The notes: a model not told the origin generated them from the letters alone. A stretch of DNA of 64,000 nucleotides from an uncultured Gammaproteobacteria bacterium (GCA_964429215.1 CAYSAY010000003.1:8369-72368); one strand, 5' to 3'. Numbered from the stretch's first letter, positions 59,378 through 60,670 are shown. A program made the numbers and translations.

Positions 59378-59692
59378 TTAACTAAACATTTGTTCTGCCA
59401 CACTGATTATATTTTGATTGCTCACATTCGTCAACTCCACCTTTTTTGGCGCCTCAGCGAGGCAACATTCAATACGAACCTCTTGTCCCATTACAGACAA
59501 GGCAATTTCTTCTAACATTTTTTTGGTTTTGGTTTCTTCAAGTTTGTCCTTATGAAATTGATAATAAACTCCAAGTTTTAAACTGTTGTTTTCGAGGCTA
59601 ATTGGCTTGGCTGAATTTAAAAGTCCAGCGATCGAAAGGCTAATCGGTTTCACTCCATCTAGAATTTTTTTCCATGTTGTTTCATCCATCAC
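59378..59692 (-). CDS. DnaX C-terminal domain-like ORF, in frame with dnaX and contiguous with it across a single TAA
   Basis: Sequence ...TWKKILDGVKPISLSIAGLLNSAKPISLENNSLKLGVYYQFHKDKLEE...LEEIALSVMGQEVRIEC matches the conserved C-terminal block of bacterial DnaX. It has a GTG start immediately after the dnaX stop. Confidence 0.5.
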   Translation of the reverse strand: MMDETTWKKILDGVKPISLSIAGLLNSAKPISLENNSLKLGVYYQFHKDKLEETKTKKMLEEIALSVMGQEVRIECCLAEAPKKVELTNVSNQNIISVAEQMFS

Positions 59693-60670
59693 TTAAAGAT
59701 TACACCATTTTATAATGGCAATCTGTAGTGGCAATTCTTCAATTGGGCTTACTTTATTAAACTCCTGGGCTGACAATATAAGACCAATTAATTTAATAAT
59801 TACATCAGATTTTTCTTCTATTAATTTTAGTTGAAGCAAAGTCAATACTTCTGTTGTTAATGATTCAACTCTAACACCATTTTTCATTGCATTATCAATT
59901 TCTAATAGAGCTTTATCTGCCTCTTTTGATAGAATAAACGAAATTAATTTGCCTGCATCAAAATTGTTTTGACTTTTCAAAAAATTTTTATCATTTGTGT
60001 GTTGCTCCAATAATTTAACTGCATCCCTAAATGACCCTTTTGAAATTTTGATTATCGTATCTATTTCAGTGTCAGTAATTGTAATTTTTTCAGAAGCCAC
60101 AATTCTTGAAACTGATCTTTTTGTTTCTTCGGCAGTTGCTTTGGTAAACTGAACAAGTGTTGTTCTACTTTTTATAGTATCGATTAACTTCTCTGGGTTT
60201 GTCGTCGCCAATATAAAATAAACATGTGCTGGCGGCTCCTCAAGCGTCTTTAACAGCGCATTAGATGCTTCTGTTGTTAACATGTGGGCTTCATCAATAA
60301 TATAGACCTTAGATTTTAGTTTTGCCGGTGCAAGTTTTATTATGTCCCGGAGTGCACGTATGTCATCAATTCCCCTATTACTTGCAGCATCCATTTCAAT
60401 GATGTCAATGTTTGAACCACCTGCAATTGAAATACAGTTATCACATTTATTACATGGTGGCTTTTTATTTTCGCAATTTATTATCTTTGCTAAGATTCGA
60501 GCTGTTGAAGTTTTACCTGTTCCCTTTGGACCCGCAAATAAAAATGCATGAGGAATTTGCCCTGATTCGATTATTTTATTAAGTGAATTTCTGACGGATG
60601 CTATATCCAACTCTTCTACATTCTGTGGTCTGTATTTAAGATAAAAAGTCATAAACTTATTATATGTCAT
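59693..60670 (-). CDS. dnaX: DNA polymerase III gamma/tau subunit (domains I-III)
   Basis: Walker A GPKGTGKTS, a 4-Cys zinc module (CNKCDNC), and SRT(T) sensor motifs. Confidence 0.9.
   Translation of the reverse strand: MTYNKFMTFYLKYRPQNVEELDIASVRNSLNKIIESGQIPHAFLFAGPKGTGKTSTARILAKIINCENKKPPCNKCDNCISIAGGSNIDIIEMDAASNRGIDDIRALRDIIKLAPAKLKSKVYIIDEAHMLTTEASNALLKTLEEPPAHVYFILATTNPEKLIDTIKSRTTLVQFTKATAEETKRSVSRIVASEKITITDTEIDTIIKISKGSFRDAVKLLEQHTNDKNFLKSQNNFDAGKLISFILSKEADKALLEIDNAMKNGVRVESLTTEVLTLLQLKLIEEKSDVIIKLIGLILSAQEFNKVSPIEELPLQIAIIKWCNL

Follow-up and report, generated by a model that had tools for sequence, protein, structure and literature searches.

Probable inherited fission of dnaX into adjacent genes for a gamma-like clamp-loader subunit and a tau domain V-like protein in a sub-clade of Woesebacteria

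The dnaX gene in a sub-clade of Woesebacteria (Microgenomates, candidate phyla radiation) has most probably undergone a genuine, inherited fission into two neighbouring operon genes, with the in-frame TAA between them serving as an ordinary terminator; we place the probability of this reading at about 0.85. An ancestral one-piece DnaX, composed of domains I-III, a low-complexity linker and a C-terminal domain resembling domain V of tau, would have been cut at the start of the linker, and the linker would have been lost. The product of the upstream gene (dnaX-N, 325 aa) would then be a constitutively gamma-like clamp-loader ATPase, and that of the downstream gene (dnaX-C, 103 aa) a free tau domain V-like protein. 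Both would be translated as ordinary adjacent cistrons of the ybeY-dnaX-ybaB-recR operon. Translation of dnaX-C would start at the conserved ATG of that gene; at the tight junctions (-1 to +5 nt) the probable route is close-range re-initiation or coupling, and a 65-nt spacer would call for de novo initiation. The TAA in the window, by which we mean the whole 64,000-nt stretch of DNA analysed here, would be a normal terminator, and the frame relationship between the two genes accidental. The long tau form is apparently not made in the split clade.

In the window, which comes from a Woesebacteria-like genome, the two genes occupy the minus strand and are part of the canonical dnaX-ybaB-recR operon order (Table 1). 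As the original prediction had described, the dnaX ORF of 325 aa ends ...IAIIKWCNL-TAA, and the GTG-ATG that follows opens a further ORF of 104 aa in the same frame. The terminal sequence of dnaX-N (...LPLQIAIIKWCNL) marks the point at which the flexible linker begins in fused relatives. The downstream ORF runs to a TAA at 59378-59380 and counts 104 aa from the GTG or 103 aa from the ATG at 59687-59689; because relatives keep the ATG and not the GTG, the product of dnaX-C is taken to be 103 aa long. In the source records, this gene is either unnamed or listed as a "hypothetical protein". A search of the 64-kb window for a second dnaX found none.

Table 1. Features of the split dnaX locus and its immediate neighbours, in window coordinates.
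Feature	Position	Strand	Description
ybeY	60667..61053	-	128 aa; stop overlaps dnaX-N start by 4 nt (ATGA)
dnaX-N	59693..60670	-	325 aa; gamma-like DnaX, AAA+ domains I-II and collar domain III
TAA stop codon of dnaX-N	59693..59695	-	read from sequence; same in 7 independent assemblies
GTG spacer (3 nt) between dnaX-N and dnaX-C	59690..59692	-	junction comparison: not kept in relatives
dnaX-C	59378..59689	-	103 aa; stand-alone DnaX C-terminal domain (tau domain V-like)
ybaB/ebfC	59080..59367	-	95 aa; 10 nt downstream of dnaX-C; PF02575 on identical locus L071
recR	58465..59073	-	202 aa; last gene of conserved dnaX-ybaB-recR cluster; RecR Pfam domains on L071

Upstream of the break, the genes proS-HIT-yqeY-ybeY-dnaX are joined by four successive 4-nt ATGA stop/start overlaps (60667-63108, minus strand), all with TGA stops, which indicates that tight junctions are routine in the ybeY-dnaX operon. 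All genes of the operon from dnaX-N downstream end in TAA, and 15 of the 54 same-strand junctions in the window measure 5 nt or less. The gene order HIT-yqeY-ybeY-dnaXN-dnaXC-ybaB-recR is retained in the split relatives. Two small ORFs of 182 aa (rich in Lys, Glu and Gln) and 65 aa, neither with a recorded Pfam hit, lie between recR and cysS (57693-58457, minus strand). Both are syntenic in relatives, and a gene of 171-185 aa follows recR in L071 and L081-L086.

The identity of the N-terminal part is clear from profile searches. dnaX-N scores 298.2 bits against TIGR02397 (dnaX_nterm, cutoff 250), which assigns it to the N-terminal clamp-loader portion of DnaX, matches PF13177 (DNA_pol3_delta2) with an E-value of 3.6e-44, and aligns with residues 1 to ~330 of the fused DnaX found at 61 loci. 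The downstream ORF had been proposed to be the C-terminal block of DnaX, and this assignment holds: dnaX-C belongs to PF20964 (DnaX_C) by a narrow margin (27.4 bits, with the gathering score at 26.2) and aligns with positions 468-556 of the 585 in the full-length DnaX model NF011512 (E 3e-16). Furthermore, a profile of dnaX-C built from the clade matches 1982 proteins, mostly at the C-terminus of DnaX proteins 450-570 aa long.

A PDB sequence search with the same profile returned only sub-threshold matches to DnaA domain I (4TPS, E 0.19), so a fold search was needed to place the domain. The AF2 model of dnaX-C (pLDDT 78, core above 85) has the order alpha-alpha-beta-beta-alpha-beta, after which come a disordered segment and a terminal helix. 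Its best Foldseek match in the PDB is DnaA domain I (4TPS_B; TM 0.75 on the target, rmsd 2.6 Å). Next come the E. coli tau_c chains of the cryo-EM complexes of Pol III alpha-beta-epsilon-tau_c, 5FKU_E (prob 0.97) and 5FKV_E (prob 0.92), which are moderate matches with TM below 0.5 and rmsd of 8-10 Å, and further matches comprise DciA (7YKM) and, weakly, the NMR structure of tau C14 (2AYA, prob 0.66). The AF2 model and the Foldseek matches thus assign dnaX-C to the fold of tau domain V and DnaA domain I (KH type II), a group that includes the DnaA N-terminal domain, DnaX domain V and DciA (PMC8216460). dnaX-C and many of its homologs also match PF11490 (DNA_pol3_a_NII, the N-terminus II of PolC) below the gathering score (E 5e-4), and dnaX-C weakly matches positions 20-86 of the DnaA model TIGR00362. 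One small fold seems to recur in DnaX, PolC, DnaA and DciA.

The terminal helix of dnaX-C (...NIISVAEQMFS) is conserved, and its equivalent in fused relatives reads ...AEEIF. The contacts between tau domain V and Pol III alpha have been described for E. coli (PMC4703070), where truncation of the tau C-terminus abolishes the interaction with Pol III and leads to ssDNA gaps, SOS induction and mutagenesis (PMC11470591). From the retained globular domain and the conserved terminal helix, we infer that the dnaX-C product may still bind Pol III alpha.

The strongest evidence for fission comes from relatives of the window in which the two parts are likewise separate. A word-index search of 5.8 billion proteins with dnaX-C recovered 39 clusters, all of them stand-alone proteins of 94-106 aa that are 51-100% identical to the query. 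These homologs start with Met-Asp-(Glu), in which Met-Asp is almost invariant, within the start motif MDE..W. A scan of GTDB species genomes found 70 loci, all from Microgenomates (Woese-, Shapiro-, Curtiss-, Ames-, Gottesman- and Levybacteria), with the N module and C domain in one ORF at 61 and in two ORFs at the nine closest. The expectation that homology would run contiguously across the stop is thereby borne out, since both parts stand in the same order within one ORF in the 61 related genomes. Seven further split loci were obtained from metagenome look-ups, and the junctions of 16 split lineages, the window included, were compared (Table 2).

Table 2. Junctions between dnaX-N and dnaX-C in 16 split lineages (WIN, the window).
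Lineages	Junction	Frame of dnaX-C relative to dnaX-N
WIN, L086	TAA-gtg-ATG	in frame
L005	TAA-gta-ATG	in frame
L009	TAG-gtg-ATG	in frame
L004, L010	TAG-ATG	in frame
L002, L006, L007, L081, L084	TAATG, 1-nt overlap	out of frame
L001	TAA-gt-ATG	out of frame
L003	TAA-aagca-ATG	out of frame
L083	TAA-aaaga-ATG	out of frame
L082 (ACD_19C Rifle genome)	65-nt spacer	counted with the out-of-frame lineages
L080	32-nt overlap	out of frame

Six of the 16 junctions keep the frame and ten do not, in agreement with the one third that would be in frame by chance alone. Across the lineages the stop position wanders by one to three codons, whereas the ATG of dnaX-C and its Met-Asp start stay fixed, which is the signature of two neighbouring cistrons rather than of a recoding site. 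A genuine split gene had been listed among the alternatives in the original prediction, and it is this alternative that the junctions of 16 lineages, the stand-alone homologs and the selection on dnaX-C (see below) support.

Several individual loci deserve separate mention. L082 (AMFJ01007473, ACD_19C, 1436-1500) is the sole split lineage with a long non-coding spacer, of 65 nt, and its dnaX-N ends ...KWVKLPQA, with KWV in place of the usual KWC. The sequence upstream of protein P0066 (L078) extends just 28 nt to the contig end with the frame open there, which is compatible with either a split or a fused gene. Protein P0184 (L079; ERZ23498652 scaffold_35500, 157-1760) was considered as a clean split and rejected as a frame-shifted fused gene. 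Here, an N ORF of 431 aa overlaps a DnaX_C ORF of 103 aa by 4 nt (ATGA). In the stretch examined upstream of the DnaX_C ORF, its frame has no stop over at least 25 codons and resembles a Pro/Glu/Ser linker, while the tail of the N ORF resembles out-of-frame sequence. This locus is therefore a fused gene whose frame shifts inside the linker, either through an error or possibly as a programmed event. Immediately downstream is a gene for a terminase large subunit (PF03237), which points to a possible phage or prophage origin of the contig. Protein P0110 (125 aa) begins as a stand-alone DnaX_C (MGDEFWKKLL...) and ends ...MKKIQKESAKKMMEMGGGLSGLLSGLGK, a sequence that belongs to the C-terminus of YbaB, the product of the adjacent gene (compare 59080-59367 of the window); it looks like a DnaX_C-YbaB chimera or a deletion or assembly artefact. 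Among the GTDB representative MAGs with a dnaX operon of the Microgenomates type, many (L001, L005, L011, L013, L017 and others) are labelled "uncultured Gammaproteobacteria bacterium", and the organism field of these records is evidently wrong.

The more distant Microgenomates show what was divided. Fused DnaX occurs at 61 of their loci, and the 57 that were measured in full encode 413-575 aa. The order within the fused protein is ...LPLE(I/L)A(I/V)IKW(C/F), then a low-complexity linker of 30-90 aa that is acidic or rich in Pro and Ser, and then W..IL..VKP.N.S.EALLR..., the start of DnaX_C. In the split clade, dnaX-N stops 2-5 residues after KWC and dnaX-C starts 4-5 residues before the conserved Trp. 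Both ends are therefore flush with conserved motifs, which indicates that the cut lies at a gamma/tau-type boundary and that the linker is gone. Fused Microgenomates DnaX, such as that of GW2011_GWF1_31_35 (CP011214, 489 aa), shares with the window clade the N-terminal end "LPLE.A.IKW", the operon, and a DnaX_C with the "YKFHKDKLEE" core and "AEEIF" helix; it differs in being one ORF with a linker of 30-90 aa, where the window clade lacks the linker and encodes the two parts in separate ORFs.

This same complete Woesebacteria genome (L008; CP011214.1, 515766-521059), in which a 59-aa acidic linker joins the two parts, complicates the history of the fission. Neighbour-joining (NJ) bootstraps were computed on the concatenated N and C parts (427 columns). 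Support was 96% for the split genomes together with the fused L008, 79% for 13 core split genomes without it, and below 1% for all split genomes without it; L010 and L081 branch earlier in the NJ tree, and the internal order is moderately supported. The nesting of a fused gene among split ones suggests either repeated fission at the same site or one fission followed by re-fusion in L008, unless the NJ tree was misled by long branches. The position of L008 among split lineages hints that the split and fused states can toggle.

What the fission means for the replisome is a separate question. With nearly even odds, and hence only tentatively, the split clade may have a replisome without covalent tau, in which the clamp loader would contain only gamma and tau domain V would act in trans as a subunit of its own. 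This subunit would either rebuild tau non-covalently or serve Pol III alpha by itself, as a processivity switch with no physical tether to clamp loader or helicase. The free C protein could assist the polymerase as a stand-alone accessory factor or "processivity switch", or it could dock non-covalently on the clamp loader. The more specific proposal, that the fission is real and the 103-aa protein re-joins the collar of the gamma-like DnaX non-covalently so as to restore a tau-like tether between clamp loader and polymerase, appears unlikely to us, although it has some appeal. dnaX-N and dnaX-C are adjacent and tightly coupled in every split lineage, an arrangement that would promote their co-translation in equimolar amounts. 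Genome integrity in E. coli suffers when tau and alpha are uncoupled (PMC11470591), which suggests a pressure to keep the tether. Against this, neither half carries extra sequence from which a new interface could be formed: dnaX-N ends at the domain III motif of the fused proteins, and dnaX-C begins 4-5 residues before the first conserved Trp of its domain. The flexible linker is also gone, and in E. coli domain IV of tau additionally carries the DnaB contact (PMC11470591).

Programmed readthrough of the stop codon was the reading favoured by the original prediction. Under this reading, a leaky TAA would yield a short gamma-like DnaX by default and a 429-aa tau-like fusion as a minority product. 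The shared frame of the two genes, the single sense codon between stop and ATG, the in-frame junctions of five other lineages (L004, L005, L009, L010 and L086) and the precedent of recoding in E. coli and Thermus, where a single dnaX gives both gamma and tau, all speak for it. We nevertheless regard it as very improbable, although a low level of readthrough in the in-frame lineages would be compatible with their sequences. The frame conservation expected of programmed readthrough is absent among the 16 lineages: in ten of them the two genes overlap, lie 65 nt apart or otherwise differ in frame, which makes the shared frame in the window a one-in-three chance outcome, and the ATG of dnaX-C is conserved while the stop position shifts. 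Relatives thus have the same arrangement with an independent, separately initiated gene, an observation named in advance as one that would count against readthrough.

The stop signal itself also lacks the features of a recoding site. The context of the stop is TAA followed by G rather than a leaky one, and TAA is the commonest stop in the window, where it ends 48 of 73 rough gene calls. TAA is also generally the most efficiently terminated stop codon. Folding of 59600-59740 (minus strand) was no better than that of shuffled sequence (z = -0.23), which gives no sign of a stimulatory RNA structure, and a search for tRNAs in the window found only tRNA-Leu(CAA) and no suppressor tRNA. No slippery run of the kind used in frameshifting or transcriptional slippage was seen before the TAA; a run of seven A (59665-59671) lies downstream of the stop, inside dnaX-C, and is not conserved in relatives. 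A Shine-Dalgarno motif is absent before dnaX-C; with a core motif at just 5 of the window's 73 genes, this absence is uninformative either way.

Two further candidates were rejected. Reassignment of TAA in the genetic code is incompatible with the 48 of 73 gene calls that end in this codon, and other same-frame pairs of ORFs separated by TAA are plainly different genes (e.g., ybaB and recR). A split-intein gene of the DnaE-n/DnaE-c type is contradicted by the lack of Pfam hits to intein or Hint domains and by both ends abutting conserved DnaX residues; the two parts sum to 428 aa with no added sequence, compared with 413-575 aa in fused homologs, which excludes a split intein.

That the stop is real and that dnaX-C is a working gene follows from comparison among assemblies and strains. 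The identical 103-aa product is found on at least seven contigs from different sequencing runs and assemblers, with the same junction (...AATCTTTAAGTGATGGAT...) in all of them, and five contigs are 88-95% identical to the window in nucleotide sequence across the shared stretch. Within dnaX-C, nucleotide differences occur in L072, L073, L074 and L077, and all seven positions at which these strains differ from the window are synonymous. An identical TAA junction in seven assemblies, some of them from strains of 88-95% identity, excludes a sequencing or assembly error, one of the alternatives raised at the outset. Over the first 80 codons of dnaX-C in the split clade, pN is 0.11-0.32 and pS is 0.72-0.97 (saturated), and dN/dS is about 0.11-0.14 where computable. 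The alignment has a mean column identity of 74% and 22 invariant columns, including the YxFHKDKLEE core. This strong purifying selection indicates a functional gene and, together with the conserved alignment, excludes a pseudogenised C-terminus, as had also been suggested. A lone in-frame stop within a gene that is usually uninterrupted would classically point to an artefact or to a recent nonsense mutation that leaves a dying C-terminal pseudogene. The chance of either is nevertheless negligible given the junction shared by seven assemblies from different runs and diverged strains, the occurrence of the split in 16 or more lineages with C proteins of only ~45-85% identity, the purifying selection on dnaX-C, the clean loss of the linker and the conserved ATG.

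If gene fission is the correct reading, it bears on the role assigned to tau. Tau is regarded as the organiser of the bacterial replisome, since clamp loader and polymerase, and in E. coli the helicase too, are linked through this single polypeptide. A whole clade would have cut tau exactly at the gamma/tau boundary, dropped the linker and kept the polymerase-binding domain under strong selection as a small protein. The split dnaX would offer a natural system for the role of an untethered domain V, and a test of whether physical coupling is dispensable in small-genome, slow-growing bacteria of the candidate phyla radiation. A tau-less replisome, if true, would be a natural experiment on the need for a covalent link between polymerase and clamp loader. 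For annotation, the 103-aa gene should be named after the DnaX C-terminal domain that it encodes, and the 325-aa gene should carry no flag for truncation or pseudogene status. No description of a split dnaX was found in the searchable literature, the coverage of which is limited. Separation of gamma and tau functions of dnaX is a known theme; judging from sequence, what appears to be new is that it is achieved by gene fission and not by frameshifting, transcriptional slippage or proteolysis.

The closest known parallels are the systems that make gamma and tau from one gene. In E. coli, this occurs by programmed -1 ribosomal frameshifting, and in Thermus thermophilus by transcriptional slippage. 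Both likewise yield a gamma-like subunit that stops after domain III, at the same boundary between collar and linker as the break in the split gene. The window locus differs from both in having no slippery site, stimulatory structure or frame conservation, and in the window clade a gene of its own encodes the C-terminal domain, with the linker, equivalent to domain IV, deleted.

Gamma-like DnaX proteins are also found elsewhere. DnaX of Buchnera is described as lacking domains IV-V, and a short DnaX family is represented by the NCBIfam model PRK14961 (363 positions). As in the window clade, these short proteins of reduced genomes provide only a gamma-like clamp-loader subunit, which means that a tau-less clamp loader is not unprecedented and that the covalent tau tether can be dispensable. 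However, those genomes have lost domain V, while the window clade keeps it, highly conserved, as its own gene.

The dnaX-C product also resembles other small modules for protein-protein interaction in the replisome, namely DnaA domain I, the N-terminal domain of DciA and the N-terminus II of PolC, which have the same alpha-alpha-beta-beta-alpha-beta fold. Unlike the modules of DnaA and DciA, it is a DnaX_C by sequence, lies within the dnaX operon and derives from dnaX. Lastly, the cyanobacterial dnaE is split, and its product is assembled by a split intein through protein trans-splicing. As with the split dnaX, a replisome gene is there translated in two separate pieces, but the halves of dnaX have no intein and no extra residues at the break, and they adjoin each other rather than lying far apart.
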